A stretch of DNA of 64,000 nt, from the IMG/VR virus record IMGVR_UViG_3300025892_000010; one strand, 5' to 3'. Below the pieces are notes generated by a model, which did not search any database, was not told the origin of the DNA, and worked only from the letters and a program-made list of their open reading frames with translations. Made by a program: the position numbers and the translations under genes. The stretch comes from a virus. Shown piece by piece: positions 12,406-62,064 of the stretch (within the stretch, counting starts at the first letter, position 1; every line of letters begins with the position of its first letter).

Positions 12406-12548
12406 TATTGTTTGTCTCTGTTCTCACTATAACCATAATCCATTACCCAACTTAATAAGGCAAATATTACACCTATCATAATCAAACCCCACAAAAATGA
12501 TTCAGGTTCAACAAACAACATATGATATAACATTTCTAAGCCATTCAT
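12405..12548 (-). CDS. small membrane protein
   Basis: MNGLEMLYHMLFVEPESFLWGLIMIGVIFALLSWVMDYGYSENRDKQ; ATGA/TAATG coupling; not in ORF track. Confidence 0.6.
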   Translation of the reverse strand: MNGLEMLYHMLFVEPESFLWGLIMIGVIFALLSWVMDYGYSENRDKQ

Positions 12549-46187: not shown

Positions 46188-46727
46188 TTAATCCTTACTT
46201 TTTTTATTTGTATCTATATATGTCTGGTAAATCTTATGAGCCTGACCTAGATTTTTTTTCTTTTCAGGATCCTTTGCTCTCTCACTTGCAACCTTGGCTC
46301 TTTGCGACATTGCAATTGCAGCCTGCATTTTGTGAGCGTGTGTTTTACCAGAGTTCTTAATCTTACTTACAGATTTTCTAGCAGTTTCGCCATCTGTAAA
46401 ACCTAAACCGTGTATTGTACCTTTAGGATTTTCATCTGTATATAAATTTTTATCTTCTTTAATACCTAATCTTTTTTGTACTCTTTCAATTTCTTTTTTA
46501 ATTTGTTTTTGTTTTTGAGAACCTGGCATTACTGACATTGCTTGTCTTACAAGTTTGTAATATAAAGCTTTGTCTTTTAAATCATATTCTTTATTTGCAT
46601 TAATACCTACACTCCTTTTTGTCTTATATTGAGCGCCTTTAGGTGGCGTATCACCTAAACTAGCAATGGGAGCTAAACTATTAACACCATTACTAAAGCC
46701 TGTTATATATTCTTTTAGAGTCTTCAT
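46188..46727 (-). CDS. putative internal virion protein
   Basis: MKTLKEYI leader; LYTDENPKGTIHGLGF motif. Confidence 0.6.
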   Translation of the reverse strand: MKTLKEYITGFSNGVNSLAPIASLGDTPPKGAQYKTKRSVGINANKEYDLKDKALYYKLVRQAMSVMPGSQKQKQIKKEIERVQKRLGIKEDKNLYTDENPKGTIHGLGFTDGETARKSVSKIKNSGKTHAHKMQAAIAMSQRAKVASERAKDPEKKKNLGQAHKIYQTYIDTNKKSKD

Positions 46728-47062
46728 ACTTTAGATTTTTCTCTAATCGTTTCTTTTACTTCAGGTTCTTCTATTCTTATTTCTTCTTTAACAATACCTG
46801 ATAGTTCATCAACTTTTTCATCTAATTTATCTAGTGTATTTAAAACACCTTTTAAAACTACATTATTGTTATCGTTATTTTCTTTTATCTTTGCACCAAA
46901 CTTTTTCATAATAGTTCTTCGCAACACATCTTCAGCGTCATCTTTTTTCTTCTTCGCATTAGGGGCCATATCTACACCACCGTGTGCTACTGCGTTTGTT
47001 GGTGCCTCTTCATCCATCTTATTGATGATTTCATCCATCATTTCTTTATAGTGTTTGGGCAT
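46724..47062 (-). CDS. putative internal virion protein
   Basis: KHYKEM...MDEEAPTNAV motif. Confidence 0.6.
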   Translation of the reverse strand: MPKHYKEMMDEIINKMDEEAPTNAVAHGGVDMAPNAKKKKDDAEDVLRRTIMKKFGAKIKENNDNNNVVLKGVLNTLDKLDEKVDELSGIVKEEIRIEEPEVKETIREKSKV

Positions 47063-47525
47063 ATTCTTTCTCCGATATTAGTTCGTCACCTTTTTCATAA
47101 ACATCAATACCAAAACAAGTCATATACGGCTCTTGTTCTATATCCAATTCAGGTATTTCTCCTTCTTCGGATAACATTTCATCATATAAATTTTGTTCTT
47201 TTAAATATGTTATTATTGTTGATTCAAGAGTGTCTTTATATTGAGCATAACTCTTATCTTCTTTAATTAATAAAGCTAATGCAACTGCAAAAGAACCTAG
47301 TTTAGAACCTAGACCAACTCTTTTAAGTATTTTTTTGATATTAAATACAAATCTATGTAATAAAGTGTAGTGTCTTTTCTTACTACCTAATACATTTTTA
47401 TATTTAATTAACACCTTACCATCTTTGTCAATAATACCATTCTTAAATGCACCTGTTTTTTCAAACGGTGTAATAAGCATTTTGACAACACGATAAGTTA
47501 TTAAAAAATCAATACCTCTAGCCAT
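47046..47525 (-). CDS. conserved T4-like hypothetical protein
   Basis: IDFLITYR..K.L.TPF...AFK.GIID.DG, YT.LHRFVFNIKKI, AL.LIKE. Confidence 0.75.
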   Translation of the reverse strand: MARGIDFLITYRVVKMLITPFEKTGAFKNGIIDKDGKVLIKYKNVLGSKKRHYTLLHRFVFNIKKILKRVGLGSKLGSFAVALALLIKEDKSYAQYKDTLESTIITYLKEQNLYDEMLSEEGEIPELDIEQEPYMTCFGIDVYEKGDELISEKEYAQTL

Positions 47526-47887
47526 TATAGTTCCTCTAACATCTTCTTAATGTTTTGGTCTTCTTTCTCCTCAACTAATTCGTGAGGGTAAAGGTAACCT
47601 AGATAACCACAAATAGTCTTTAGTATTGGCCAATAAACTTTATCTATTTTAAATAACAATAAAGTCATACAGGCGTCAGCACCAAAAACATTATGTAATA
47701 ATATAATATGGTTTAATACTAATCTTATCTTTAAATCACCAGACGTTTCATATTTACGAAACAATCTTTTAAGATATTTAAACCTTTTTACATCATCATC
47801 AAACTCTTGTTGTACTTCAAGAGTAGGGTTGTCATAATTATGCATAGCATATAACAACCAGTTTTGTTTGGTTATCGTATCAAACAT
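47525..47887 (-). CDS. conserved T4-like hypothetical protein
   Basis: YAMHNYDNP...EF.DD.KRFKYLKRL, RLVLNHII.L.NVFG. Confidence 0.75.
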   Translation of the reverse strand: MFDTITKQNWLLYAMHNYDNPTLEVQQEFDDDVKRFKYLKRLFRKYETSGDLKIRLVLNHIILLHNVFGADACMTLLLFKIDKVYWPILKTICGYLGYLYPHELVEEKEDQNIKKMLEEL

Positions 47888-47890
47888 TAT

Positions 47891-48328
47891 TTACACTAAT
47901 TTAGCGTAAACTTTAGACATTCCTGTTTTTAACGTTTCGTACTCTACTTGAAGTTTCAAACCACCTTCTTTTTTATGAGAAATACCATCATCATTAATAT
48001 CAGAACCATCTACGTCCTTACCAAATCTTCCTCCACCAAATTTTACTTCGGTTGTAAAGTTACCTTTTTCACCAGTAGTTTCTTGAACAGGTACAAATAG
48101 ACCTATTCTCATTAAATTATTTCTTATTTCTTCAACAGCTGTCTGAGCAGACATATATTCTTTGCTCGCTGTTCCACCAAGAAATGCATTAACTCTTTTT
48201 AAAACTTCCGGGTCTTGTATGTTGTGAACACCAATAGAACCATCTTCAAAAGAAGCTGCGTCAGGTGTACCAACGTGGCCGCCATCAAGACTTTCTTTGA
48301 TGTTTATGTGTTGTTTAAAAGTTTTCAT
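47891..48328 (-). CDS. putative internal virion protein
   Basis: MKTFKQHINIKE leader. Confidence 0.65.
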   Translation of the reverse strand: MKTFKQHINIKESLDGGHVGTPDAASFEDGSIGVHNIQDPEVLKRVNAFLGGTASKEYMSAQTAVEEIRNNLMRIGLFVPVQETTGEKGNFTTEVKFGGGRFGKDVDGSDINDDGISHKKEGGLKLQVEYETLKTGMSKVYAKLV

Positions 48329-48483
48329 TACTCTTCTTCCTTGTTTTTTTCTTCTTTGTCTTCAGATTTTTTTTTAGTTTTCATACTAGCCATAGGTTTA
48401 TTAGTACCAAGACCAGGACCTAAAATATCTTCCTCAAAGTCTTTCAAATTTTCATCTTCTATAAAAGATTTAAATTTTTTCAT
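48328..48483 (-). CDS. small putative internal virion protein
   Basis: MKKFKSFIEDENLKDFEEDILGPGLG...; TAATG coupling; not in ORF track. Confidence 0.55.
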   Translation of the reverse strand: MKKFKSFIEDENLKDFEEDILGPGLGTNKPMASMKTKKKSEDKEEKNKEEE

Positions 48484-48709
48484 TTTTACTTTTCTTTACT
48501 TTCTTTAATACGACTTCTTTATTAGTTGCCATATTGATTAAGTTGGTAGAAAATTGTATTGCACCATTTAAAGCATTTAAATTACTTTTCATAGTACCAA
48601 CATCAATTTCTACTTTTTGAATCTTATCTTTCAACTCATTAAAGTCTTTAGTAAGTCGCTGTCTTTCATCTTGCAATTCTGCTAATGTTATATTCATAAT
48701 ATTCTCCAA
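48470..48709 (-). CDS. coiled-coil hypothetical protein
   Basis: NLNALNGAIQ. Confidence 0.6.
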   Translation of the reverse strand: MENIMNITLAELQDERQRLTKDFNELKDKIQKVEIDVGTMKSNLNALNGAIQFSTNLINMATNKEVVLKKVKKSKNEKI

Positions 48710-48717
48710 TTAATAAA

Positions 48718-49176
48718 TTACGCTGTCGTACCAGTATTTGCTAAAATGTTCCAAGAACCATTTTTAAAAAAACATACGGCAGTTTGACCTGCACCAGATA
48801 ATACTATACTAGTATGACCTCGTAAGTTTGCCGGTGTAATTGTAGCATTGTTAGAACCAGTTGATGATGTATTCATAAAAATTTTGATTTGACCATCTGC
48901 ACCATTAGCTAATGTAATAGTACCTGCTTGGTTTGTTGCGTTGATTTCAGTAACCGCTGAGGTAACATCAGCCGCTAAAACTGAAGAACCATCTAACGAT
49001 AGTTGTTGTGAAGCTTGTTTCAATCCTAACCAAGTTGGTATGTTATTGAATATAGAAGCTGCATTTACTTTTTTATTGATTGGTGTTCCAGTCGGGTCAT
49101 CCACAATGTGGAATAAATCTACTGAAGCTAATGCGTTACCTAAATCGGTAAGCTGTGTGATTTTCTTATCTGCCAT
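48718..49176 (-). CDS. virion structural protein
   Basis: MADKKITQLTDL...DLFHIVDD, TLANGADGQIK; late promoter and AAGGAG RBS. Confidence 0.65.
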   Translation of the reverse strand: MADKKITQLTDLGNALASVDLFHIVDDPTGTPINKKVNAASIFNNIPTWLGLKQASQQLSLDGSSVLAADVTSAVTEINATNQAGTITLANGADGQIKIFMNTSSTGSNNATITPANLRGHTSIVLSGAGQTAVCFFKNGSWNILANTGTTA

Positions 49177-49241
49177 TTTTTCTCCTTTAAACCCTTTCGG
49201 GAATTCTACTTGCGCCAGTTGACGCAATCACTTTATTAATA

Positions 49242-49249
49242 TATTTATA
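49242..49249 (-). promoter_or_regulatory. T4-type late promoter TATAAATA
   Basis: Exact motif directly after the terminator. Confidence 0.75.
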
Positions 49250-49250
49250 A

Positions 49251-49268
49251 AGGGGGCCGAAGCCCCCT
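49251..49268 (-). terminator. terminator hairpin with UUCG loop
   Basis: AGGGGGC-TTCG-GCCCCCT then TT. Confidence 0.75.
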
Positions 49269-49282
49269 CTAATTAGTTGTTA

Positions 49283-49564
49283 TTAAGCGGCGTTAGTTAA
49301 AACTGATAAAGTCTCGTATTGTACTCTACCATTTCTACCACCTGAACCAGTAATTTTTAAGTTCCAACCTGCGTGGCCAGCACCTGCCGGTACTTCACCA
49401 TCTGCATAGTTAAATAAACCCAATGTGACACCTGTAATAAAGTTGTCAGCAGTTGCGTCTTCAAATAAGTTAGTTCTATTTGCACTTGTTGGTGCTAATT
49501 TAGCAGCGGCACAAGCCCATAAAGGTGCTCCTGCAGCTGAATCTGCGCTAGTTTGCATAGACAT
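49283..49564 (-). CDS. small virion structural protein
   Basis: HAGW...GR.GRVQYETL motif; own late promoter and terminator. Confidence 0.6.
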   Translation of the reverse strand: MSMQTSADSAAGAPLWACAAAKLAPTSANRTNLFEDATADNFITGVTLGLFNYADGEVPAGAGHAGWNLKITGSGGRNGRVQYETLSVLTNAA

Positions 49565-49616
49565 AGTATTCTCTCCCTTTGTTAAATTTAGGTACTCAAT
49601 TCTTAATATGTACCAC

Positions 49617-49624
49617 TATTTATA
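49617..49624 (-). promoter_or_regulatory. T4-type late promoter TATAAATA
   Basis: Exact motif. Confidence 0.75.
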
Positions 49625-49630
49625 AGGGAT

Positions 49631-50113
49631 TTAATCTTCTAGGAGTTTTTTGAGAAGTCTGATAGTTCTTGAAGTATCACCATTATGGACAACACCTTGT
49701 CCACCTTTAGCTCTAAATTCATTAACGTTTTTAGGATAATCGTCTATCAGTATTGAATTCTTATCTGCGTATTGTTGTTTTTGTACACGCTTAACAAGAT
49801 TAATTCTATTAGAGGCAATGCCAAGATTTTTGGTTGCCCAATATTTTTTACCAGGTATACAATTCTTATCGTAAGTATCCTCTACGTAAGCTGATAAAAT
49901 TTCTGTATTATATTTTTTTAGGAAGTTCCAGAGTTGTTTGCCGCCTTTATGCCAAGGTAATGTAGACCAAAAATCTGGTTTACTTTTGATAGTACCCCAT
50001 TTTTCAGACTTACTGCCTTGAGCCCAAACGTCAATCTTCTTGCCGGTAAGTGTTTCAGCACCTTTTACAAAGTCGCATAGCACACCATCCATATCACAAT
50101 AGATTTTTTTCAT
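49631..50113 (-). CDS. HAD-family 5'(3')-nucleotidase
   Basis: IYCDMDGVLCDF, FW..LP, ILS, K..W, ILIDD...NV.EF...GG. Confidence 0.85.
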   Translation of the reverse strand: MKKIYCDMDGVLCDFVKGAETLTGKKIDVWAQGSKSEKWGTIKSKPDFWSTLPWHKGGKQLWNFLKKYNTEILSAYVEDTYDKNCIPGKKYWATKNLGIASNRINLVKRVQKQQYADKNSILIDDYPKNVNEFRAKGGQGVVHNGDTSRTIRLLKKLLED

Positions 50114-50173
50114 AGTGTTTGTCCTTTCATACTAGTATAATAACACATCCAATATAAAAGGCAAGCGTTAATT

Positions 50174-50446
50174 TTACTTATTATACGTGATTTTTGGCTC
50201 GGTATCAACTTTAGTTTTAGTTTCACCAGACATTGTTTTGCCTTTGCCCTCTGATTCTTTTTTATACTTTGAGTCCATCTTATTGAAAAAATCTTTTTTC
50301 TCTTGGTCAGACATTGAAGCCAAACCTTTACCAGTTTTTTCTAATTCTTTTTTGAACATTTGTTGGTAAGCAGAATCATTAATATATTTTGTAAGGTCTT
50401 TAGTTGCTTCCTCTAAACTACCTGATTTTGAATTAAAATATCCCAT
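50174..50446 (-). CDS. putative internal virion protein
   Basis: SGSLEE; YQ.MFKK.L.K.G...M...EKK.FFN. Confidence 0.6.
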   Translation of the reverse strand: MGYFNSKSGSLEEATKDLTKYINDSAYQQMFKKELEKTGKGLASMSDQEKKDFFNKMDSKYKKESEGKGKTMSGETKTKVDTEPKITYNK

Positions 50447-53400
50447 TATTTTCCTTTTACTTGTTTTGCTAAATCTTTATCTGCACCACCCCAAGTACCA
50501 CTTGATTTGGTTACAAAAGAATTAACTCTTGCGAAAGCCCATTGTTGTTGAGTAGCACCTGGTCTGTGGCCACCTCGCCAAGCTGCCATACCTCTATCGT
50601 AAACTTTTTTAAGAATACCATAAGGCATTCCTGATTTTTCAGCCTTATTTTTTAAACCTGCAATTTGTTCAAAGACTGCCCTAGCTGGGTGTTCTTCGTT
50701 CTTCATTTTAGGTTTCATACCTTGTTTTTTTAATCTGTCCATATCTGCAACAGCAGGAGCATTTTCAGCTTTTACTTTTGCACCATAAAAGTTTTTAAGG
50801 TCGTGAGCATACTTGTTTAAGTCTGCACCTTTACCATCTACTTTCATAACCGTACCTTTAGCATTAATAGTAAAACCTTGTTTTGCTAAATCAGTAGAAG
50901 CTTTTGACATATCATCCATAGATTTAAATGTAATAGTCATCTTTTTAAACTCATTTAAATCTTCGTTAGTTCTTTTCAAAACCTTTTGTACATCTGGATG
51001 TTTTGATAAACCTTTTGCAAGTTTCTCAATAGCTTTGACAGCGCCAGTATAATTACCTTGTTTGTATCTAGGGTCATTTGCAATACCGTATGCTTGTTTA
51101 ATTTGTTGTGAAGTAAACTCTACAAGTGTTTCTTCAGGCACACAATTAGGTACTTGTTTGCCACCTTTATCTTTCATACCAACTTGTTTGTAACCTGTCC
51201 AACAAGCTTCAAACATTTCTTCATCCATTTCTTCACCGAATTGGATATTTTTTACCGTAAATTTCATATTTCTTACTGCAAGTTTACTTCTTGAACCACT
51301 TGAAATAAAAGGTATGTTTTCTTTACCTAATTTTTGTAAGTCTGCTTCTTTAAATTTATCAAGAATATTCATAAGTTGTTTTGCTCTAGCAGCTGTAATC
51401 TTTTTATTTCTAAAAGGTTCGTATTCTTTTTTAAGAGTTGCAATCATTTGAGGTGTAATACCAGCTTCTGAAATTACTTCTTCATTTTTATATTTCTTTT
51501 CTAGTATCAATCTGCCTACATAACCTAATTTATCTTCATTTTTTCTTGTCATCTTTGATAAATCTTTAAACATATCTAAAGCAGCTTCTAATGAAGAATT
51601 ACATTTATGTGATTTTGTATAATTATCGTGGTCAGCATTTTCATCATAACAAAACTCTAATTCACCTGCAATCATTTCAAGTTTCTCTTTCATTTTTTCG
51701 TCTTTAGTTTCATCTGCTACACTTAATAATGAGTTAGCCATATCTTCTAGGTTCTGAAGTGTCTCTATAACTTCTGGTCTAAAACCTTTTTTAGCATTTG
51801 ACATACCACTACCAGGACTGCCTTCAGTTTTATCTGCATTTACCATATCAACTATTGTTTTTAAAGTTGCTGTACCATCTTTAATTAATGGTCCCATATT
51901 TTTTGAAGTCTGTTGAGGCATATCACCATATGCTTGGTCATTAAATAAATCTATTTGTTTATCAGCTACTTTCATTTTTTCTAATGACGCTAATTTTTTA
52001 CCACTAAATTTTGCCATCAAATCTTGAAATGCCGCTTCTGCTTTATCTGGTTCTGCTTCAGCAACATCACTACCTACATACCCAAGTTCATCTGCAAGGT
52101 CATCAAGACCCATTTCTCTACATTTTTCTATAGCAGCGTCAAATGAAAATTCATCATCAAAATCTAATTCTATTGGATTGCCATCTTCATCTTCTAAATC
52201 ACCATTGTCTAGGTCTTTTAAAAAGTTTCTTGATTTAATTTGTGTATCGTCTGCTTCTTTTGGTTTATCTTTTTTAGGTGCTTCAGGTTTTTTAGGAGCA
52301 GGTGTATCAGATTTTGGTTCATCATCTTTACCTACTTTTACTAGATTATCACCAGAAGTTTTATGAGTTACCTTACCATCTTTACCATAACGACCAAACT
52401 TCATATAGTCTAGTCCCATACCTTTTGCTTTATCAGAGGCAGCCGATTCTGTCATTTCTTCTTCTTCATCATTAAGTTTAGGTTTATCTTTACCCACTTG
52501 AGCAATCATATCTGAACGTTTTTTTGCTTCTTGTTCTTCTTTTTCTTTTTCCATCTTTTGCTTTAGATGTTTATAAGCAATACCTACCTGTAATAATGGT
52601 TCGCCTGTTTCAGGATTAACCATTTTATCTTGTGCTGTTCTAGCTCTTTGTGCTTGTTTCTGTGCGTCTGTTTGTGCTTTTTGTTTTACAGCAACCGTTT
52701 GCTCTCTACTTTTTTCTAATTCTTTTTTAAGTTTTTCTACTTCACCATTTTCTGCTTCTTCTAAACTTTCTTTGTATATAAAATCACCTGCATAGTCATT
52801 AAGTTTGTCAACTTCTCTATCAGAAATATAATTACCATCTTTCTCCATACCATTCATAGATACATCTAAAACAGACCTAGACCCTCTAGCTTGTGCTTGT
52901 TTGACGATTTTATTTAATGCTTGACCAAACTTTTTAGCAGCATCCTTAGGACTAAAAGCATTGATATTCATTTCTTTACCCTGGCCAACATATCTATTAT
53001 CAGCACCACTACTTGAATCTACATCATAATTAATAGTAAATTTTGCCTCTTCTAATTCTTCTTCTTTTACTTCAACAGGTACATCATTTTCAGGTGCTAC
53101 ATCTGTTTTTTCTTTCTTCTTTACAGCTTCTTCCCAAGTCTCAACGGTTTCTTTAATCTTATCTGTCTTAGCTTTTGCTTGAGCGTCTTGCATATCTTGA
53201 GCAGAATCACCCTCTGATTCACCTAGAATTGCTTTTACCGTTTTTACATCTATGCCTAATTCTTTTGCAATCTTAGCCGCTGACGCACCTTGTTTTCTCA
53301 TTGCGTCTATATCTGACATTCTACCTTCAACTAAATCTGATAGTTGATTAATACCTGCGTGTTTGATTGCTAGTTGTGTAGGGACATCCATATTTGCAAT

Positions 53401-53562
53401 CATTTTTTTGACTGCTGGTGTCACATCTGATTTTGTTTTATGTTTCCATAAATTTTTAATGTTCTTAATTTGTGTGTCATTCAGTCTTGATTGTAAGTAA
53501 CCAACTTCATTTAAGTTTACTTCAGCCATTGCTTCTGACATTGTTTTTCTATATCTACTCAT
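50446..53562 (-). CDS. large modular putative internal virion polyprotein with C-terminal DUF5824-like module
   Basis: Start MSRYRK (TAATG coupled); many hydrophobic-X-E linkers; ACW.GYKQVG.K.KGGK.VPNCVP; VYDRGMAAWRGGHRPGATQQQWAFARVNSF. Confidence 0.75.
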   Translation of the reverse strand: MSRYRKTMSEAMAEVNLNEVGYLQSRLNDTQIKNIKNLWKHKTKSDVTPAVKKMIANMDVPTQLAIKHAGINQLSDLVEGRMSDIDAMRKQGASAAKIAKELGIDVKTVKAILGESEGDSAQDMQDAQAKAKTDKIKETVETWEEAVKKKEKTDVAPENDVPVEVKEEELEEAKFTINYDVDSSSGADNRYVGQGKEMNINAFSPKDAAKKFGQALNKIVKQAQARGSRSVLDVSMNGMEKDGNYISDREVDKLNDYAGDFIYKESLEEAENGEVEKLKKELEKSREQTVAVKQKAQTDAQKQAQRARTAQDKMVNPETGEPLLQVGIAYKHLKQKMEKEKEEQEAKKRSDMIAQVGKDKPKLNDEEEEMTESAASDKAKGMGLDYMKFGRYGKDGKVTHKTSGDNLVKVGKDDEPKSDTPAPKKPEAPKKDKPKEADDTQIKSRNFLKDLDNGDLEDEDGNPIELDFDDEFSFDAAIEKCREMGLDDLADELGYVGSDVAEAEPDKAEAAFQDLMAKFSGKKLASLEKMKVADKQIDLFNDQAYGDMPQQTSKNMGPLIKDGTATLKTIVDMVNADKTEGSPGSGMSNAKKGFRPEVIETLQNLEDMANSLLSVADETKDEKMKEKLEMIAGELEFCYDENADHDNYTKSHKCNSSLEAALDMFKDLSKMTRKNEDKLGYVGRLILEKKYKNEEVISEAGITPQMIATLKKEYEPFRNKKITAARAKQLMNILDKFKEADLQKLGKENIPFISSGSRSKLAVRNMKFTVKNIQFGEEMDEEMFEACWTGYKQVGMKDKGGKQVPNCVPEETLVEFTSQQIKQAYGIANDPRYKQGNYTGAVKAIEKLAKGLSKHPDVQKVLKRTNEDLNEFKKMTITFKSMDDMSKASTDLAKQGFTINAKGTVMKVDGKGADLNKYAHDLKNFYGAKVKAENAPAVADMDRLKKQGMKPKMKNEEHPARAVFEQIAGLKNKAEKSGMPYGILKKVYDRGMAAWRGGHRPGATQQQWAFARVNSFVTKSSGTWGGADKDLAKQVKGK

Positions 53563-53912
53563 TAGTTGTTTACCTTTGCTCCTGCTCTCCATTGATAACA
53601 AGACCAATATCGTGCTTTCCATTTAGGACCTGGATTATCACAATTGTGCCTTGCTCTAAACGATTTACGTCTAGCTGGGTCGTCTCTTTTAATACTTAAA
53701 CCTGTTGTGTCACCAAATGATACTTTAACTACATTACCTTTTTCGTTCTTAACATAAACATAAAACTTCTTACTACCACCACGAATTGGGTCATTAAGTT
53801 TGACCTTTTTGCCTTGATATTCAGACTCTTGTAAAGGTTCGTGTTCGTGTTCAAAAATACACTCATCACATTCTTTATCGTAGTTTTCAAATTCTTTTAA
53901 TGTTTTTACCAT
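53562..53912 (-). CDS. DUF6321-like conserved protein
   Basis: MVKTLKEF leader; EYQGKKVKLN, KV.FGD, RRKSFRARHNC, ARYWSC. Confidence 0.75.
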   Translation of the reverse strand: MVKTLKEFENYDKECDECIFEHEHEPLQESEYQGKKVKLNDPIRGGSKKFYVYVKNEKGNVVKVSFGDTTGLSIKRDDPARRKSFRARHNCDNPGPKWKARYWSCYQWRAGAKVNN

Positions 53913-56209
53913 TAGACTTTCTCTATCATTTTAGCAACAGCCTCTTTTAGCTTTGCTTCCCATTGTTCTTTATAACGTTCCCTATATTTATTCATTGTGG
54001 ACTCTGTAGCTGCCCATTCTTTTATATCTTTTTCAGTAGGGTTATCCGTTTCTCTTTCTAGGAAACCTTTGATTTTCTTCTTAACTGCCATATCACCACT
54101 ACCTGGTTGTGACGGTTTGTATGTAGGATTTTCATATCCTGCATAGTCTGGTTCACCTGGTGTTATGGTTGATGTATGTTTAGCGTAGTCGTTACCAATG
54201 TCTGTCGCCTCTTTAATCTTTGAAACGAGGTCTTTTCGTAATTCTCCAAACATTTTTTTATATTTCTGCGTGTGTTTAGATGGTTTAGTTTTAGCTGTCT
54301 TATCTCCAGGTGCTGGAGTGTTGTCATTCTTGGTTGTGTCTTTGCCTTTAAAATGGCCAGCTCGTTTATCTTTAACATCTTTTTTTAGTCCACTATAATA
54401 CTTTTTAGGTTGTGTTCCTTTTTTATCTTTCACGTCTTTATCTTGAGCTAATCTATCAGTATGTGCTTTAGAAGCCTCTGATACTGCCTCAAATCCATAG
54501 TCAACGTCTAGGTTATATTCCCTCACGTCTACCTCTCTATCTGCCGATACAGGTACACAATCCCATATCCAAGCTTTATGTAAATTATTTTTATCGTCTT
54601 CTAATACGACATAATTAGTACCTTTTCTTTTTACGGTACCTTGTATATCTTCTTTGACATAATCAACTTTGTCACCAATATTAAATATCATTTCTCTAAT
54701 ATATAAATCTCTAATTTGTTGGTGTTCAAAGTCTTTAAATGGTACAACTTCTTTAGTCTCGCCTGTGTATTGAGCGGCTAAATTCATACCTTGTCTTACT
54801 TGTTTCATTATAGCATTTGCGTCAACACCTCTTGGTAGTCCTCTTTTAAAACTAGCAATATCGTTGCTTGAAGCAGCTGCTCTCATTTTACTCGCTGACA
54901 TACCTGATACGTTATCGGCATCGGGGTCTCTTTCGCCAGCAGATACAACATCAATATTATCAAAGTTATAATAACCGTGTCTTGATTTTACATCATTATA
55001 CTTTTTAATTATTGTATCAAATTCTCTAACTCTATCACTACCTACAACCATAGTTATATCACTATAACCTTTTTTGTAAAGTAATGTACAAATATCTAAT
55101 ATCATATTTGTATTATTAACTTCTATATTTCTTGCGTGTCTAGGAAACATCTTTTTCATTATGTCTAGTTTTTGTCTAGGCGATAATGGATTCTTTTTAG
55201 GGTCCTGACTTCTACTTAAATAAATTCTGTAATCGTTTGACCTAATACTTGCCACTTTATTAATTAACTTTTCGTGACCAGTTGTAGGTGGATTAAATCT
55301 ACCAAAACTAAATGCGATTGACTTGCCTTTAGCTTCGTGCATTTCTAAATCATCTATCTCTTTATCGGTAACTTTACCGTCATCTAAAATCTTTTTACAT
55401 TTTTTATAGAAGTTTAAATAGTGATATTTTTCTAACATCTTATAGATAACATTTTTAGGTAATCTATTCTTAATACCAAACTTTTGTATTTCGTCTGGTG
55501 TCATATCTGAATCAAAAGCAGCTCTTCTATCTGCGTCAACACCATCACCTACTTTAATAATGGCTTTGATACTATCTTCTATTTCTTCTAACTTATCGTT
55601 AATTCTATCTTGTAAATTTAAAATATCATTAGGTTCTAATTCTTCTAATTCTCTGTAATCAATAATGTCTCTTTTTAATTCACCTTTGATAACATCTAAC
55701 TCTTGTACTTTTTTCTCAAAATCTTTTAAGTATAAACTAGGGTCAAATGTAAAATCGTCAGGTCTTTTTATAAACTTATTACCCTCAATATCAAATACTG
55801 CGTCTGCCTTTTTATTCTGGTCATCATAAGTTTGTTTGTCTGTAATAAAATAATAATTAATAGGGTGTTTAGAACCTGGTATTAATTTGCCTTGTATGTT
55901 ATCTGGATTAGAAGCAGACAAATACTTTTTAGATAGTCTTAATCTTTCTTCTTCTTGTTTATCAACAGGTACATCAAACAATACATTAAGGTCTAGGTCT
56001 GCGTCATTTCTATATCTCTTTGTAAGAATAGAACCGATAAGAGAAACTTTTAAAACAGGATACTCACTTTCAAATTCTTCTAGTTGTTTATTGATTAATA
56101 CAACAACACTAGGTTTGATTTTAGGATTAGGAGTATCAGCGTCATCAAACACAGCCTTAGCATATGTTCTTCTTGGTATATCTATGATACTTTCTTTAAA
56201 CGTTTTCAT
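53912..56209 (-). CDS. fusion of pol-beta-type nucleotidyltransferase and HIGH-family cytidylyltransferase, plus SH3-like and DUF5824-N-like modules
   Basis: MKTFKES leader; IGS..Y..DADLDL; FGRFNPPTTGHEKL, VVGSDRV, SAGERD, MSASKMR. Confidence 0.8.
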   Translation of the reverse strand: MKTFKESIIDIPRRTYAKAVFDDADTPNPKIKPSVVVLINKQLEEFESEYPVLKVSLIGSILTKRYRNDADLDLNVLFDVPVDKQEEERLRLSKKYLSASNPDNIQGKLIPGSKHPINYYFITDKQTYDDQNKKADAVFDIEGNKFIKRPDDFTFDPSLYLKDFEKKVQELDVIKGELKRDIIDYRELEELEPNDILNLQDRINDKLEEIEDSIKAIIKVGDGVDADRRAAFDSDMTPDEIQKFGIKNRLPKNVIYKMLEKYHYLNFYKKCKKILDDGKVTDKEIDDLEMHEAKGKSIAFSFGRFNPPTTGHEKLINKVASIRSNDYRIYLSRSQDPKKNPLSPRQKLDIMKKMFPRHARNIEVNNTNMILDICTLLYKKGYSDITMVVGSDRVREFDTIIKKYNDVKSRHGYYNFDNIDVVSAGERDPDADNVSGMSASKMRAAASSNDIASFKRGLPRGVDANAIMKQVRQGMNLAAQYTGETKEVVPFKDFEHQQIRDLYIREMIFNIGDKVDYVKEDIQGTVKRKGTNYVVLEDDKNNLHKAWIWDCVPVSADREVDVREYNLDVDYGFEAVSEASKAHTDRLAQDKDVKDKKGTQPKKYYSGLKKDVKDKRAGHFKGKDTTKNDNTPAPGDKTAKTKPSKHTQKYKKMFGELRKDLVSKIKEATDIGNDYAKHTSTITPGEPDYAGYENPTYKPSQPGSGDMAVKKKIKGFLERETDNPTEKDIKEWAATESTMNKYRERYKEQWEAKLKEAVAKMIEKV

Positions 56210-56898
56210 CTTCTTTTTAATTTTCTTTCTGTAGCCATCCATCTTTTTGCTGTGTATGACTTAATTTTATTTGATAATAAACCTCTTACTGCTTTACCAA
56301 CTTTACTCATTACTATTGTTGTAAGTTCTTTATCGTCTTTACTATTATCTACAATCACCATATTATTCATACCAAATAAATTTTGAAATCTACCAATATT
56401 AGATTGTACACCTTCCCAAGATTTTCTTGTAATATATTCTGGTACGGTTCTCTCTCTTTTTTTATTTCTTTCTAATGCAACATCTAAACTAGTATTAACA
56501 AATATCATATAACAATCATAACCTAATTGTCTTAACATAGCAGTTTGGTTTTTAATCTTATCATAATCTCTACCAGTACCATCAACAACCATACCTAATC
56601 TACCTTTGATAGATAAGTCCATTATATTACCTGTTGTTGCCTTTGCTCTGGCTCTTACTATATCTCTCGCCTCTGCCTCATCTTCAGGCATTTTTAATGA
56701 AAGATTGTTTTTCTTTAATGCATTTTCAAAACCAGTATCAGAGTTAATCATTCTTAAACCTGTACCACCAAAAGCACTTCTTGTCACAAATGTTTTACCA
56801 GAACCTGGACCACCTGCAAGAAAAAATGCCTTAAAAATATTAGGGTCATATAAACCCTCATTTAATTCTGTATATTTTATGTCGTTAAATGTTTTCAT
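56206..56898 (-). CDS. zeta-toxin/PNK-like P-loop kinase
   Basis: MKTFND...LNE leader; FLAGGPGSGKT, INSD, VVDGTG, FVNTSLDVALERN..RER. Confidence 0.8.
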   Translation of the reverse strand: MKTFNDIKYTELNEGLYDPNIFKAFFLAGGPGSGKTFVTRSAFGGTGLRMINSDTGFENALKKNNLSLKMPEDEAEARDIVRARAKATTGNIMDLSIKGRLGMVVDGTGRDYDKIKNQTAMLRQLGYDCYMIFVNTSLDVALERNKKRERTVPEYITRKSWEGVQSNIGRFQNLFGMNNMVIVDNSKDDKELTTIVMSKVGKAVRGLLSNKIKSYTAKRWMATERKLKRR

Positions 56899-57476
56899 CT
56901 TTCTATTCTTTTTATAATTTTATTTGCAATAACTTCAGGCTCTGCACCCTCAGCTTTAATATTTATTAATTGTTCATCAAAATGTTTAATAACAGGACCA
57001 ACTTGTTTTTCGTGTTCTCTTAATCTTTGTTTAATAACTTCTGGTTTATCATCTGCTCTACCTCTGGCCGTCAATCTTCTAATTACTTCTTGTTCAGATA
57101 CTTGTAAGTTAATAATAAAATTATGTTCTATATTATTTTTATCCATTGCTCTTACTTGTTCCATACTTCTAGGAAAACCATCAAATACATATCCGTTTCT
57201 TGCGTCTGGTTTTTTAAGTCTGTCCATAACTTCTCTCATAACAATCTCTGTCGGAGCAAACTTACCATTCGCTAATAATTCTTTTACTCTTTTACCATCT
57301 GGTGTATCTTTCTTTGCCAAGTCTCTCATCATATCACCAGTATAAATGTGTGGTATATTAAAATGTTTTGTAATATATTTTGAGTAAGTTGATTTACCCG
57401 AACCTGGTCCACCTATCATAATAATTTGCCAAGGTCCACCTTTTATTTCTCTTAAAAATCTTTCTACAAATTTCAC
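56895..57476 (-). CDS. adk: adenylate kinase (short-LID type)
   Basis: GGPGSGKST, HIYTGDMMR, FDGFPRS.EQ, RL.ARGRADD; GTG start. Confidence 0.9.
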   Translation of the reverse strand: MKFVERFLREIKGGPWQIIMIGGPGSGKSTYSKYITKHFNIPHIYTGDMMRDLAKKDTPDGKRVKELLANGKFAPTEIVMREVMDRLKKPDARNGYVFDGFPRSMEQVRAMDKNNIEHNFIINLQVSEQEVIRRLTARGRADDKPEVIKQRLREHEKQVGPVIKHFDEQLINIKAEGAEPEVIANKIIKRIER

Positions 57477-57634
57477 TTTTTATATCCTGTACCTTTATCT
57501 CTGTTGCCCCATCTTTTTTGCCAAGCCCAAACACTCATTCTACCACCTATGCTTTCACATATTGAATAGTATTTGTCTAAAACACCAATCATTTTCTTTT
57601 TATATAAATCAATTGTATCTGGTAATGTTCTCAT
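57473..57634 (-). CDS. small hypothetical protein
   Basis: MRTLPDTIDLY...SVWAWQKRWGNRDKGTGYKK; coupled on both sides. Confidence 0.55.
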   Translation of the reverse strand: MRTLPDTIDLYKKKMIGVLDKYYSICESIGGRMSVWAWQKRWGNRDKGTGYKK

Positions 57635-58851
57635 TAATTCCATCCTTTAGGCATTGTAAAGTTTTGCCTACTAAATTCTAATCTATCTACAAGTTTAACT
57701 GCACCTGCAACTCTATCAACGGCCACATATCCTTCAGGAGCGGTTACTCTATAACCACTTGAAGTTCTAACAAAATGACCTATACTTTGAATTTGATTCA
57801 TCTTTCTTAATAAAGTATTTTTAGCATTCGCTAAAGTAATATGACTTGCAATCGCAAAGTATAATGCTGTTCTATTTCTTTTGATAAAATTCATACCTTC
57901 TTTTTTTGCTTTTTGGTATGGTGCTTTACCTCTATCAGTTTTCTTACTATCAATTTCTTTATCTAATACGTTTTCGTAATATGTTTCAAATCTTTTTTGC
58001 ATATCTCTTACACCACCCATATTACCTTGCGTTGTTTTGATAAAGTGATTAAAGAAAGTTTTTAATCTAAATCCAACCGTATTAGTGTCTTGACTTGTTT
58101 TAGACATTTCATTTAACATAGGAGCTGCTTTAGATAAAGAGCCTTCAGCCATTCTTATTTGTGCGTCAAAAGCTTTTAGTTCATTAGCATTAAACATAAC
58201 TGAACCAGACTTATCTGTATATTGAGCAGACGCTAAAAATATATTTGAACCACCATTACCTCTAACGGTACCAAAACCTGCTGATAAACTTTTCATATTT
58301 TTACCAGTATATGATGTATGAAATACAATGCCCATTTTGGCTCTAGCAATTTGTTTACCGATATTACTATCTACCGGTACTGCATATGTAATTGTATTAG
58401 GTGTAAATGAAAGCATTTTTTCACCATCAATATTTACTACTTTTAAATCGTCTGTAAATAATAGGTCGCCTTGCAAGATACCTTTGATTGGTAATTTTTT
58501 AAGATAATTAAAACAATATGCAAGTTTTTGAGCTGCACCACCTGTGCCGTGATTTTTTTTAATATCTGATATTGAATAATTGATTTTAGGTGTGACGTTG
58601 AATACTGATTTAGTACCAACAAAGAATTTTCCGTTTTCTGGATTTTGGCCACATATAATAGCAGGCGCACCGTCCCATTTAACGGTCATATTAACTGCAC
58701 CTTTGGCATTACCAGCCAACATATTTCTAACTGATTTTAGAAAGCTTATTGCATTATCACCACCTTTGGCACCGTTATTAATAATATCATCTTCTAGGTG
58801 TTCAAGGTGTGTGTTTTTGTCCTGTGTAAAGAAACCTTTAAAACTAAACAT
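57634..58851 (-). CDS. DUF6267-like protein with ATP-dependent ligase/nucleotidyltransferase motifs
   Basis: KNTHLEHLED; motif I TVKWDG, III LQGDLLF, IV PEGYVA, V VKLVDR. Confidence 0.75.
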   Translation of the reverse strand: MFSFKGFFTQDKNTHLEHLEDDIINNGAKGGDNAISFLKSVRNMLAGNAKGAVNMTVKWDGAPAIICGQNPENGKFFVGTKSVFNVTPKINYSISDIKKNHGTGGAAQKLAYCFNYLKKLPIKGILQGDLLFTDDLKVVNIDGEKMLSFTPNTITYAVPVDSNIGKQIARAKMGIVFHTSYTGKNMKSLSAGFGTVRGNGGSNIFLASAQYTDKSGSVMFNANELKAFDAQIRMAEGSLSKAAPMLNEMSKTSQDTNTVGFRLKTFFNHFIKTTQGNMGGVRDMQKRFETYYENVLDKEIDSKKTDRGKAPYQKAKKEGMNFIKRNRTALYFAIASHITLANAKNTLLRKMNQIQSIGHFVRTSSGYRVTAPEGYVAVDRVAGAVKLVDRLEFSRQNFTMPKGWN

Positions 58852-58910
58852 TTGTTCTCCAATTTATCCATTTATATAATAATCACTAACCCATTAACAA
58901 ATCATACTAC

Positions 58911-58918
58911 TATTTATA
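58911..58918 (-). promoter_or_regulatory. T4-type late promoter TATAAATA
   Basis: Exact motif heading the 58851-50174 operon. Confidence 0.8.
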
Positions 58919-60394
58919 CTATGAAACCTTTAGAAAAAAGGTAGAAATATCCGTATTAGACATAGCATATCTAACAATCTGTCTTGAAAATTCATCTAGT
59001 TTTTTACCTTTTTTATCAGCTTCAACTGCCTCTAAAAAAAGTAAACCCATATATTTACCAAAATAAAAAGCTTTACTTTTATTTTGGCCTCTTTGTGTAT
59101 ATTCATCTGCGCTCTTTTTAAATATGTCTTCAGCTACCACGTCTTGTTTTTCAGTACCAGGTTTTTGTTTGTTTATAAATCTGGTATATAAATTGTAAAA
59201 GTTTTGAAGGTTAATATCTTTATAGTAAGTCTCTCTATAAGTTGATAGCTTACTTCTATGACCAATGGTTCTGTTAAAATTCTTTTCTACATAATGATTG
59301 ACAACACCACCACCTATTTTACCAGCAGCTGCATATTTGCCTTTCATTTCACCTTGCCAAGATTTAATTGTTTCCATAGCTCTTAATTGCATTTGACCAC
59401 CATCATTAAAATGTAAGTAAACATCTGCTGAATTAAAAAAATCTCCTGTCTGACCAAAAGTAAAACCAGTAAATTTTGTATCGGTATTATGAGTTCTTTT
59501 TCTAGTATTAAATGGTGTTACCGTTGCTTGTGAACCACCAACTTTTTTTAAAGATATACCTAAAGTATGTTCATCAACTTTATCTCTAACTGCCTCTCTT
59601 AATTCTGTCCATTCTACTGGTAAAGTTTTTTCATCTTTAGAAAATGGTAATCTACTAGTAGGTTGTTTTGTACTCATCCATATATCTCCTGGATTCCACT
59701 TATCATCATTAAAAGAACCAGGTGCTATAGGTGGATTGTTAACTTTCTTATCGTAGTCTTGAGCTTTCTTTTTATTATCATAAACAGCTTTCATAAAAGG
59801 AGACCCTCTATGAAAATAAACTTTTTTATTTTTAAAAACTTTTACATACTGCGAATTATAAATTGCATTGGCAGACTTTATAAAAACATCTGTTTTAAAC
59901 CAATCTTCAGGACATTTTTCGTATAAATCTTCAATTTTGTTTCTTTGAGATTTATCATAAGTAAAACAATAATCGTGTTGTTTTTTTAGTGCTTTTATAT
60001 CTGTATTTTGATTAGTTAATTTAGTAGCACTAGTATTAAAAAGTATAGATAGAAAATAACATTGTAATGATTCAGTTATAGCCGTGTCGTTTGCACCACC
60101 ACCTGAACCTTTACCACCACCAAAATCGGGGTCTTTGAAAAATTTAGAAACTAAATCTCTACCTGTTTCAGTTCTTCCTGATTTACTATTAGAATATACA
60201 ATAGTATATTTGTCTTTTTGGTCTTTAACTAATTTTAAACCATAGACTTTTCTACCATTAGCATTTTGACCTAATATAAATTCTTTTTTATCTTTGACTT
60301 TACATTCAAAAATACTTTCATAATCCTTACCTTTATAAGGACCACCGCTGGCTGTGTACTTGTCTCTAAATCTAGTAGCTGATAATTGACCCAT
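58919..60394 (-). CDS. PD-(D/E)XK nuclease-like hypothetical protein
   Basis: TESLQC, DKWNPGDIW, GISLKK; upstream GATAAATA late-promoter variant. Confidence 0.55.
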   Translation of the reverse strand: MGQLSATRFRDKYTASGGPYKGKDYESIFECKVKDKKEFILGQNANGRKVYGLKLVKDQKDKYTIVYSNSKSGRTETGRDLVSKFFKDPDFGGGKGSGGGANDTAITESLQCYFLSILFNTSATKLTNQNTDIKALKKQHDYCFTYDKSQRNKIEDLYEKCPEDWFKTDVFIKSANAIYNSQYVKVFKNKKVYFHRGSPFMKAVYDNKKKAQDYDKKVNNPPIAPGSFNDDKWNPGDIWMSTKQPTSRLPFSKDEKTLPVEWTELREAVRDKVDEHTLGISLKKVGGSQATVTPFNTRKRTHNTDTKFTGFTFGQTGDFFNSADVYLHFNDGGQMQLRAMETIKSWQGEMKGKYAAAGKIGGGVVNHYVEKNFNRTIGHRSKLSTYRETYYKDINLQNFYNLYTRFINKQKPGTEKQDVVAEDIFKKSADEYTQRGQNKSKAFYFGKYMGLLFLEAVEADKKGKKLDEFSRQIVRYAMSNTDISTFFLKVS

Positions 60395-60415
60395 ATGTCT
60401 CTCCCTACATACTAT

Positions 60416-60691
60416 TTATCTTTTTGACATATAGTTTAAACATAAAAAAGGTGGTACGCCACCATTTACTTGCCAAACTTTATTTTTATTTTGAAAATCT
60501 ACAATCTTCTTTGCGTCTTCTTCAAAAAAATATTCATTAATAACAGAATTGGTTGGCTGTTCAATAACTTGCCAGACCATTTTTCTACCACGTTTTACTA
60601 GTTTTGTATTGTAAGACAATTTACCCTTTTGACCTCCTGGTCTCTTATCACCTTTATGAAATCTAACTTTTTGTTTTTTAGTTTTTGGCAT
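60416..60691 (-). CDS. basic hypothetical protein
   Basis: Coupled to helicase; FHKGD.RP; NGG.PPFL. Confidence 0.6.
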   Translation of the reverse strand: MPKTKKQKVRFHKGDKRPGGQKGKLSYNTKLVKRGRKMVWQVIEQPTNSVINEYFFEEDAKKIVDFQNKNKVWQVNGGVPPFLCLNYMSKR

Positions 60692-62064
60692 TATACCTTA
60701 AAGTCACTAAACTTATCGTAAGCAACTTCTTTTTGGGGTTTAACTTCTCTTTGGTTGCTGTCAACAATATTTTGTGCTGATTGACCAACATCATATAGTC
60801 TCATCTTGGCTCTATCTACACCTATGATAAATGACCTGTTGACGCTTGGGTCATTGTATCTATTTTTAAGTTGTTTAACTTTCATTTGACCTAGTTGTTC
60901 TAGTTCTTCATTACTAATCAAAGCAAACATAAAGTCTGCTGTTGCTGGTAGACCAAAAGATTCAGACGTGTCTTCTAATCCAATATCACTTGAAGTGAAA
61001 CCTGTTCTAGTTGTTTGTGTTGCACTAAAGATTGGTACATTAAATTCTACTGCAAGACCTCTTAACTCTTCAGCAATAGCCTTAATATAGAAATAAGAAC
61101 CAATATTTCCACCTTTAAATCTACTTGAAGCACATATGTTTAAATAATCAATAAAGATAATATCTGGTCTAAATGATTTCTTTAATGCTAGTTCATCTAT
61201 TAATGATTTAAAGTGACCACTATGAGCAGACGCTGTTGGATATTCTTTAATAATAAGTTTACCATAAGTCTTGTCTGATATTTTTTTCATCTTATTTTCA
61301 TACAAGTCTTTAGGCATTACGTGTAGGTCATCCATAGAAACGTCTAATAAGTTAGCGTCTATTCTTTCTGCAATTCTTTCCTCTGCCATTTCTAAAGTAA
61401 TATATAAAACATTTTGACCCTCTGTTAAGAAGTTAGAAGCCATATGACACATAAACAAAGATTTACCAACACCGGTACCTGCTAATGCAATATTCAATGT
61501 CTTAGCTGGAACACCACCTTTGGTAATTCTATTCATATATTCTAAATCAAATTTATATCTTTTCTCTTTAGTATGGTACCAATCATATCTTTTTTCTGCG
61601 TCTTCTATATAATCGTGACCAACTGACTTGTCAAATGATACTGCTAATGCGTCTGATAATATATGTGGTATGGCCTCTGCTGTTTGTTTCTTATCTTTGC
61701 CATCTAATATTTTAATGCCACTTAATACTGCATTGTGAACAGCACGGTCTTTACACCACTTTTCAGTAGTATCTAAAAGCCATTGTTCATCTGTCTCCAG
61801 ATTTTTAACTGCATTTACATAGTCTTTTATATTATTGTGTTCAGTATCATTAATATCTTTTCTACTATTAACTTCAATTAGTATAGCGTCTTTTGTAGGT
61901 ACATTATTATACTTTGTAATAAAATCAAATATGGTAGTAAATAATACCTGTTCAGTTCTTTCAACAAAGTAATCTTCTTTTAGAAAAGGTAAAACTTTTC
62001 TAGCATACTCTTCTTTGTGAAATAAATTACTTAATATGGTATATTCTATTCTATCACTTATCAT
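60691..62064 (-). CDS. gp41: replicative helicase gp41
   Basis: LAGTGVGKSLFMCH, ITLEMAEE, IKEYPT, IDYLNIC, SATQT.R, QLKNRY. Confidence 0.97.
   Translation of the reverse strand: MISDRIEYTILSNLFHKEEYARKVLPFLKEDYFVERTEQVLFTTIFDFITKYNNVPTKDAILIEVNSRKDINDTEHNNIKDYVNAVKNLETDEQWLLDTTEKWCKDRAVHNAVLSGIKILDGKDKKQTAEAIPHILSDALAVSFDKSVGHDYIEDAEKRYDWYHTKEKRYKFDLEYMNRITKGGVPAKTLNIALAGTGVGKSLFMCHMASNFLTEGQNVLYITLEMAEERIAERIDANLLDVSMDDLHVMPKDLYENKMKKISDKTYGKLIIKEYPTASAHSGHFKSLIDELALKKSFRPDIIFIDYLNICASSRFKGGNIGSYFYIKAIAEELRGLAVEFNVPIFSATQTTRTGFTSSDIGLEDTSESFGLPATADFMFALISNEELEQLGQMKVKQLKNRYNDPSVNRSFIIGVDRAKMRLYDVGQSAQNIVDSNQREVKPQKEVAYDKFSDFKV

Follow-up and report, generated by a model that had tools for sequence, protein, structure and literature searches.

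Short T4-like leaders on a nucleotide-enzyme cassette of a marine T4-like phage suggest packaging into the phage head

Introduction

Why would a phage start its nucleotide-handling enzymes with the kind of short leader found on the internal proteins of T4? This question is raised by an eight-gene cassette at positions 50,174 to 58,918 of IMG/VR virus record IMGVR_UViG_3300025892_000010, a stretch of 64,000 nucleotides (nt) which is referred to here as the window. The first-pass annotation of the window had proposed that these enzymes are expressed late, packaged in the virion and delivered at infection. We found that leader-directed packaging of the cassette enzymes into the head and delivery with the DNA is, on our analysis, the best explanation of the locus, with a probability of roughly 0.65. 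The mechanism would be that of T4, and the presence of one member in virions has been published. The leader-tagged enzyme set itself, which is widespread, is not described in the literature searched. Our literature search found no link of the cassette proteins to a capsid-targeting sequence and no mention of DUF6267, the family of the first cassette protein.

All genes of the window are on the minus strand, and the G+C content is about 32%. Judged from its genes, the source is a marine T4-like myophage near Pelagibacter phage HTVC008M, within the SAR11-phage group. Its DUF6267 protein shares 49% identity with the HTVC008M counterpart and about 40-49% with the counterparts in T4-like cyanophages. 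The cassette sits in the interval from gp41 (helicase) to gp61 (primase), and the order uvsX, gp41, cassette, small genes, gp61 primase, nrdA is common to HTVC008M, S-PM2, S-SZBM1 and P-HM2, confirming the synteny across related myophages that the annotation had named as a check. The same block was found on 80 metagenomic viral contigs, whose DUF6267 proteins are 63-88% identical, and megablast of the cassette against a phage collection gave zero matches. The usual order in relatives is DUF6267, (56-aa), (adenylate kinase), P-loop kinase, nucleotidyltransferase (NTase)-cytidylyltransferase, 116-aa protein, DUF5824 protein, 90-aa protein, HAD nucleotidase and small proteins (aa, amino acids). 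The adenylate kinase gene is optional among them, and the 116-aa gene sometimes stands directly after DUF6267.

Leaders of the cassette proteins resemble those of T4 internal proteins

In the T4 record, the internal protein (IP) IPI starts MKTFKEF and its leader ends I-T-E, and IPII and IPIII start MKTYQEFIAE. According to the T4 rules, cleavage occurs after L/I-x-E, targeting needs residues 4 and 7, and processing needs residues 8 and 10; Asp at position 10 stops processing, not targeting (PMC9026906). The leaders quoted in the first-pass annotation are all present in the window. The 765-aa NTase-cytidylyltransferase fusion (53912..56209, minus strand, as are all features below) begins with the 6-residue leader MKTFKE followed by S, and its start is most likely 56209, not the longer open reading frame (ORF) start at 56242. 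The 230-aa P-loop kinase (56206..56898) has the 14-residue leader MKTFNDIKYTELNE followed by G, which ends L-N-E before a conserved G-L-Y-D. The 193-aa adenylate-kinase-family nucleoside monophosphate (NMP) kinase (56895..57476) has a 16-residue N-terminal extension, of which residues 1-10 form the leader MKFVERFLRE followed by I, ending L-R-E. The 116-aa virus-only protein (phrog_7595; 53562..53912) carries an acidic 29-residue leader with a T4 IPI-like start, MVKTLKEF, and an L-Q-E end. Further leader-bearing ORFs were found beyond the cassette at 48483-48328 (51 aa), 48328-47891 (145 aa) and 46727-46188 (179 aa). Around positions 4 and 7, hydrophobic or aromatic residues occur in the kinase, NTase-cytidylyltransferase, 116-aa, adenylate kinase, 145-aa, 51-aa and 179-aa proteins.

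We searched the DNA with a pattern taken from T4 alone, M-K-T-[FY]-[KQ]-E, which in T4 itself matches only ipI, ipII, ipIII and 61.1. In 1.54 Mb of sequence (the window and related loci) there were 15 matches and none in the reversed control, and all 15 are start codons of the NTase-cytidylyltransferase or 116-aa families. A relaxed N-terminal rule selected 5 of the 114 genes of the window, all inside 46188-56898, and 2 of the 205 genes of HTVC008M, both in the syntenic block. Furthermore, the ADK family profiles begin at residue 17 of the window adenylate kinase, and the leader is therefore an add-on which cellular enzymes lack. At the level of sequence, the likeness of these leaders to those of T4 exceeds chance.

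Cleavage-type junctions are conserved in homologues

The first-pass annotation had made its proposal depend on conservation of the leaders in homologues, and the pattern was found to be conserved. In the kinase family, 28/28 unique leaders end [LI]-x-E before the conserved domain, at lengths of 8-20 residues, and in the 116-aa family the figure is 27/27. Most of the 28 leaders of the NTase-cytidylyltransferase family end [IFLV]-x-E; the exceptions are two with L-K-D at the end and a few in which the first of the three residues differs. Across homologues the leaders change in sequence and length, and the Glu-ending junction stays at the domain boundary. The same leaders were also seen at more distant loci, where DUF6267 itself, a cytidylyltransferase-kinase fusion and small adjacent proteins bear them; one of these begins MIGFKEFIAE. 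Most of these loci encode gp41 shortly before DUF6267, with a few genes in between.

The DUF6267 protein has an invariant N-terminal H-L-E-H-L-E-D that is part of the domain, and leaders precede it in most of the family: 81/104 full-length cluster representatives have an extension with [LIVFM]-x-E just before H-L-E-H-L-E-D. The exact T4 rule of 10 residues, which asks for a hydrophobic residue at positions 4 and 7, L/I/V at 8 and Glu at 10, fits 34/104 representatives, compared with 0.15% of internal positions, and the consensus leader is MKSFKQ(F/Y)LTE followed by (S/A)K.

A protease that could cut such junctions is encoded by the sister phage HTVC008M, whose prohead protease is 39% identical to T4 gp21. 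In the HTVC008M capsid protein, L-G-E is aligned to the L-T-E of T4 gp23, which is followed by A and which we take to be the maturation cleavage site of gp23.

Homologues of the cytidylyltransferase were detected in cyanophage virions

The cytidylyltransferase (T4-GC190) is a cyanophage core gene, and its product was found in S-SM1 virions (PMC3037559). S-SZBM1 virions contained the cytidylyltransferase and its downstream neighbour (PMC9146016), and S-CREM2 virions contained it together with two neighbours (PMC10665884). The S-CREM2 authors already suggest that the cytidylyltransferase may be carried into the host, and the idea of its packaging is in print (PMC10665884). The virion-detected S-SZBM1 protein begins MRFRQFIIE followed by A.

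Promoters and organization of the operon

The cassette is headed by a T4-type late promoter box, TATAAATA (58911..58918), as the first-pass annotation had reported. The box is intergenic: it lies in the 67-nt gap that follows a 491-aa ORF, 59 nt upstream of the DUF6267 start codon, an ATG at 58851. Within 120 nt upstream of DUF6267 in relatives, TATAAATA was found in 59/75 loci and ATAAATA in 70/75. The octamer is not commoner in the window than chance (12 seen, 13.8 expected); all but one of the 12 copies follow the coding strand, and 10 of these 11 have a gene start at most 70 nt downstream. Seven copies touch intergenic DNA, which makes up 4.3% of the window. The 11 minus-strand sites are at 58918, 49624, 49249, 43960, 20464, 19804, 13477, 9479, 8446 and 3239, with an internal one at 37275, and none was found between 58911 and 49624. 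Late promoters could not be predicted in a survey of pelagimyophages (PMC7029224). In this pelagimyophage-like genome, candidate late-promoter boxes appear easy to recognise by position.

The claim of a translationally coupled operon held for the whole cassette. Its eight genes have overlapping start and stop codons, with junctions from DUF6267 to the 90-aa ORF of -10, -4, -4, -4, -1, -1 and -1 nt. These include a coupled 56-aa ORF (57473..57643), which is conserved in 14 related loci, and the last coupled gene (50174..50446), whose 90-aa product has homologues that keep an N-terminal K-P-G-S-(I/L)-E-E.

Homologues are transcribed late in one cyanophage: P-HM2 genes 162-164 (DUF6267, cytidylyltransferase and the next gene) are classed as Late and gp41 as Mid (PMC5082946 S2 Table). 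The late kinetics claimed by the annotation thus agree with these homologues, but 33/72 related loci also carry a near-perfect sigma-70 promoter, TTG(A/C)CA-17-TATAAT, between the late box and DUF6267. The distance from its end to the DUF6267 ATG is 18-32 nt (mostly 18-24). These 33 relatives score 11-12/12, a level reached by 0.9% of random 70-mers. A sigma-70 scan of 49000-61000 in the window gave no overall enrichment, and the promoter emerged only on comparing relatives. In the window the corresponding element, TTGTTA-18 nt-TATAAA (58871..58900), is degraded and scores 9/12; in this lineage it has decayed to a form that reads almost as a second late box.

Since 33/72 relatives carry the near-consensus promoter, expression of the operon is probably not late-only across the group, and the enzymes may also act from inside the cell. 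However, the sigma-70 promoters do not count against packaging, because sigma-70-like boxes, and no copy of TATAAATA, were found within 90 nt upstream of the T4 ip genes themselves. Taken together, the promoters of relatives and the T4 ip upstream regions mean that lateness falls away as an argument for packaging, and the step from late to packaged in the first-pass annotation is a weak one.

DUF6267 is a candidate ligase-type nucleotidyltransferase

The 405-aa DUF6267 protein (57634..58851; Pfam E 4.5e-119) belongs to a family of 2,755 clusters at 50% identity. Residues K58, D60, G61, G128, D129, E373, G374 and K386 are invariant in 41 homologues, in line with the earlier description of a ligase-fold protein. 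They include motifs of covalent nucleotidyltransferases: K-x-D-G with the catalytic Lys, motif III, motif IV (E-G) and motif V (K). In the predicted model (pLDDT 88), a putative ligase/capping-type adenylyltransferase fold carries a helical insert of about 130 residues. With the exhaustive fold aligner VIA-align, the top nine matches were RNA ligase adenylyltransferase domains, with middling Z scores of 8.4-6.5 over 163-197 residues. The matches comprised Naegleria Rnl, REL1, Trl1, T4 Rnl1, Rnl2 and archaeal Rnl3, with DNA ligases next. With Foldseek, neither the DUF6267 nor the NTase model matched a PDB entry at E <= 0.001, and when solved structures were searched with DUF6267 by phmmer and profiles, low-complexity helical matches were all that came up. 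The fold ranking and the invariant K-x-D-G, E-G and K motifs together support the prediction of a ligase-type nucleotidyltransferase with a helical insert.

DUF6267 was found fused to the cytidylyltransferase in several proteins, and once also to DUF5824; these fusions indicate that the three act together. Separately, a metagenomic protein of 1325 aa combines DUF6267 and cytidylyltransferase with a RimK-type ATP-grasp and a putative zinc protease domain.

Kinases, NTase-cytidylyltransferase and charged proteins

The adenylate kinase, the zeta/polynucleotide kinase (PNK)-like kinase and the pol-beta NTase fused to a HIGH-family transferase, all named in the first-pass annotation, matched Pfam-type profiles above cut-off. 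The ADK match is strong (Pfam E 1.4e-40, 139 bits against a cut-off of 26.8) and the P-loop is present. The NCBIfam adk model gives 153.5 bits, under its cut-off of 168, and the protein is therefore assigned to the ADK-family NMP kinases. The Zeta-toxin/AAA_33/PNK-like P-loop kinase has a Walker A motif and matches Zeta_toxin (45.6 bits against 22.3) and AAA_33 (49 bits against 27). Its nearest solved chains are zeta toxin (E 1e-4), then the Pnkp kinase and PSTK (E about 0.1).

In the 765-aa fusion, the leader is followed by a minimal pol-beta NTase and a helical domain, an HxGH cytidylyl/adenylyltransferase domain and the N-terminal half of DUF5824. The NTase domain (NTP_transf_2, 27 bits against 21) keeps the G-S...D-x-D signature, with G53, S54, D65 and D67 invariant. 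Its fold matches are MNT 1ylq (Z 8.0) and CdnG (Z 6.8), and AadA, ANT and CdnE at E about 2e-3. Judged from its model, it is a generic minimal pol-beta NTase. It has no specific likeness to CCA-adding enzymes, which appear only at ranks 40 and 45, so that the earlier suggestion of CCA addition gains nothing from it. The HxGH domain matches CTP_transf_like (22.9 bits against 21) and phrog_395 (E 6e-70), and has a faint likeness to NMNAT and PPAT only.

The DUF5824 domain is split in the window: its C-terminal half is on the 1038-aa Lys/Glu/Asp-rich protein (50446..53562). In many relatives the whole domain is on the cytidylyltransferase protein. Residues 88-150 of the 1038-aa protein show a weak helix-turn-helix (HTH) match (IS21 transposase N-terminus, E 1.3e-5), and this putative HTH might bind DNA. 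We also considered whether this protein is a polyprotein diced by the protease. This found no support (10 [LI]-x-E sites seen, 9.5 expected); cleavage at a few sites would be compatible with the count. The 116-aa protein had been called DUF6321-like; however, it has no Pfam match better than E 7.6 and matches only phrog_7595, and a protein-atlas search gave virus clusters only, with no named family.

Proposed route of packaging and delivery

By its sequence the operon has a gp55-type late promoter, in many relatives also the sigma-70 promoter, and its genes form a translationally coupled unit. If the leaders work as in T4, the hydrophobic or aromatic residues around positions 4 and 7 would let the leader bind the scaffolding core, and the proteins would be built into the prohead. 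A gp21-type prohead protease would then cut after hydrophobic-x-Glu and free the mature enzymes in the head, from which they would exit with the DNA at infection, like T4 IPI-III and Alt. The likely cargo would be the NMP kinase, the PNK/zeta-like kinase, the NTase-cytidylyltransferase, the small acidic proteins and the 1038-aa DUF5824 protein. DUF6267, which has a canonical 10-residue leader in most lineages, belongs to the same functional unit as the cytidylyltransferase and DUF5824, because it is fused to them elsewhere.

Evidence against packaging and alternative explanations

Several observations weigh against packaging, and many of them favour an explanation that we consider unlikely but serious, namely that the proteins are ordinary intracellular auxiliary enzymes. 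Their N-termini would then be inherited or a translation-start optimum, and the virion detections would be carry-over. The sigma-70 consensus promoters in 33/72 relatives fit this explanation. So do leaderless versions: in five loci a leaderless adenylate kinase is fused before the P-loop kinase in one protein of about 410 aa, with a leader-like stretch (ending L-N-E or similar) lying internally between the domains, and leaders are absent from cyanophage DUF6267 proteins and from the P-HM2 cytidylyltransferase. A pelagimyophage survey counts adk among the auxiliary metabolic genes (PMC7029224). The S-CREM2 authors caution that virion preparations may contain abundant soluble proteins that co-purify (PMC10665884), and cytidylyltransferase peptide counts are low, at 2-3 in the S-CREM2 and S-SZBM1 proteomes (PMC10665884, PMC9146016).

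DUF6267 adds to these points. In the clade of the window its leader-like extension of 10 residues reads MFSFKGFFTQ, in which Gln replaces the cleavage Glu, and the passages covered of the S-CREM2 and S-SZBM1 virion protein tables do not list DUF6267. Given the Gln and the effect of Asp at position 10 in T4, the DUF6267 protein of this phage may be targeted without cleavage, or may not be packaged. For the proposal that the enzymes are packaged and delivered, the leaders and the cytidylyltransferase in three cyanophage virions speak in favour, and the DUF6267 leader without Glu speaks against.

The leader rules and the gene content of the window call for similar caution. The relaxed rule was framed after seeing the data, and the strict T4 rule of 10 residues selected only the adenylate kinase among the genes of the window and HTVC008M. 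Because leader length varies, the weight was placed on the domain junctions and on the pattern derived from T4, not on the strict rule. Genes for a prohead protease, a scaffold and gp55 were not found within the window; a gp33-like late factor gene is present at 12548-12763.

A purely intracellular role, however, is hard to reconcile with the form and distribution of the leaders. Unrelated families share one pattern, with varied length and hydrophobic-x-Glu at the domain boundary. The T4-only pattern matches nothing but these start codons in 1.5 Mb, and the adenylate kinase has 16 residues absent from cellular enzymes. Finally, the same enzyme appears in three independent proteomes, twice with its gene neighbours.

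A second alternative, quite improbable in our judgement, accepts that the leaders target the prohead core but holds that the proteins act in head assembly or DNA packaging and are then degraded or expelled, undelivered; the 1038-aa Lys/Glu-rich protein, for example, could be a core or scaffold component. That protein is indeed highly charged and mostly unassigned, and T4 gp21, gp22 and gp24 begin with similar short L/I-x-E segments. But folded enzymes with intact catalytic motifs would be odd scaffold parts, homologues are present in mature virions, and [LI]-x-E sites are not in excess in the 1038-aa protein.

T4 gp63 has a dual role, as RNA ligase 1 and in promoting tail-fibre attachment. That DUF6267 is the counterpart of gene 63, expressed late for morphogenesis and unrelated to its neighbours, would agree with the presence of T4 Rnl1 among its fold matches (Z 7.0) and with late transcription of its P-HM2 homologue, but is highly improbable given the fusions that tie DUF6267 to the cytidylyltransferase and DUF5824, the head-targeting type of leader on most members, and an Rnl1 match no better than those of other RNA ligases.

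Possible joint function of the enzymes

If the enzymes are delivered from the head, our best guess, held with low confidence, is that the set performs polynucleotide-end or nucleotide-cofactor chemistry that pre-empts host damage. The P-loop kinase, a HAD phosphatase (50113-49631), the ligase-like enzyme and the NTase might be seen to resemble an RNA heal-and-seal set, and NAD or nucleotide supply is an equally open guess. The functions offered in the first-pass annotation (RNA healing and sealing, CCA addition, NAD recharge) are guesses as well, for which the modelled RNA-ligase-like fold of DUF6267 would be the only source of some support.

More broadly, phages of SAR11, OM43 and picocyanobacteria might share a head-carried, leader-addressed kit that is injected and repairs or pre-empts RNA-end or cofactor damage before phage expression, a new kind of counter-defence or host priming. 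Its core would be DUF6267, cytidylyltransferase and DUF5824, to which pelagiphages would add the PNK-like kinase, adenylate kinase and pol-beta NTase. We regard this kit, with this composition, as doubtful.

Comparison with known systems

The closest precedents are T4 IPI-III and Alt, the last of which shows that an enzyme can be head cargo. The likeness lies in the leader (M-K-T-F/Y start, hydrophobic residues near 4 and 7, L/I-x-Glu end) and in the homologous protease and capsid L-x-E site of HTVC008M. T4 cargo, however, consists of small, fast-evolving basic anti-restriction proteins, whereas the putative cargo here, conserved and syntenic, comprises nucleotide-handling enzymes of up to 1038 aa. 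T4 leaders have 10-19 residues, whereas some of those here are shorter (6) or longer (29).

The cyanophage T4-GC190 cytidylyltransferase of S-SM1, S-SZBM1 and S-CREM2 has a homologous HxGH domain (phrog_395) and the same place after gp41 and DUF6267; it is late in P-HM2 and has the same kind of leader in S-SZBM1. Here, in contrast, the domain is fused behind a pol-beta NTase and accompanied by two kinases and other leader-bearing proteins that are missing in cyanophages. The cyanophage literature searched offers detection and speculation on delivery and names no targeting signal.

DUF6267 shares the K-x-D-G, E-G and K motifs with RNA ligases (Rnl1, Rnl2, Rnl3, Rnl5, Trl1, REL1), and the PNK-like kinase and HAD phosphatase of the same block recall the T4 repair pair of Pnkp and Rnl1. 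But DUF6267 differs from these ligases in its helical insert, its middling Z scores and its lack of a sequence-level match to solved ligases, and the P-loop kinase resembles zeta toxin and PSTK no less than Pnkp. Head-carried enzymes delivered at infection are also found in N4 (virion RNA polymerase) and in phiKZ/SPN3US-type giant phages. In the latter, ejection proteins have propeptides cut after Glu by a gp21-related protease, but these propeptides are mostly longer than 100 residues and the cargo is a transcription machine, not a set of nucleotide or polynucleotide-end enzymes.

If packaging is true, a T4-type address label would explain the 15-year-old oddity of a cytidylyltransferase in cyanophage virions. 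The adenylate kinase and other auxiliary metabolic genes of SAR11 phages would move from metabolic help to entry-delivered cargo, and DUF6267 (about 2,750 clusters at 50% identity) would gain a fold, a catalytic lysine and a likely location. Existing virion mass-spectrometry files are enough to test the central claim, with no need to grow new cultures. Like the T4 leader, those described here might also be used to bring foreign proteins into the heads of marine phages.

Neighbouring genes and minor observations

A HAD-type 5'(3')-deoxyribonucleotidase-like phosphatase (49631..50113) lies 60 nt downstream of the 90-aa gene. It has no leader and may or may not be on the same transcript as the cassette. 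Beyond it are the further leader-bearing genes. The 145-aa protein (47891..48328) has the leader MKTFKQHINIKE, and its HTVC008M homologue gp139 has MKSFKDFQNVNE. The 179-aa protein (46188..46727) starts MKTLKE, and in the corresponding stretch HTVC008M gp143 starts MKTFTDF; no alignment was found between these two proteins.

The 51-aa peptide (48328..48483) starts MKKFKSFIED and has a Gly-rich middle and a Lys/Glu tail. T4 gene 61.1 (54 aa; T4 record 2467-2631), between genes 41 and 61, starts MKTFKEFIKE, and occupies the same interval with the same layout of leader, Gly-rich middle and Lys/Glu tail. BLASTP gave no alignment of the two, so that the likeness is one of layout and position only. 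T4 gp61.1 may be an unrecognised head-targeted peptide.

Upstream of the cassette, the 491-aa protein (58919-60394; phrog_1462) has a faint SIR2-like stretch at residues 102-188 (PADLOC, E about 1e-3). Its HTVC008M counterpart, gp126, begins with the leader-like MLSFTGYSNLSE, which the window copy does not have. PADLOC gave only weak matches on the window, this SIR2 match and VakA for the kinase fold.

Further downstream, the listed TTG start of a 169-aa ORF (48718-49227) is probably wrong. The homologue in HTVC008M, gp136, starts at an internal M-A-D-K-K-I-T, and a start of this type would place the start of the window ORF near 49176, with the late box about 65 nt upstream. Finally, a G+C-rich perfect hairpin (49251-49270) stands directly after a 93-aa late gene and before the TATAAATA box at 49249-49242, and is likely a terminator between two short late units.

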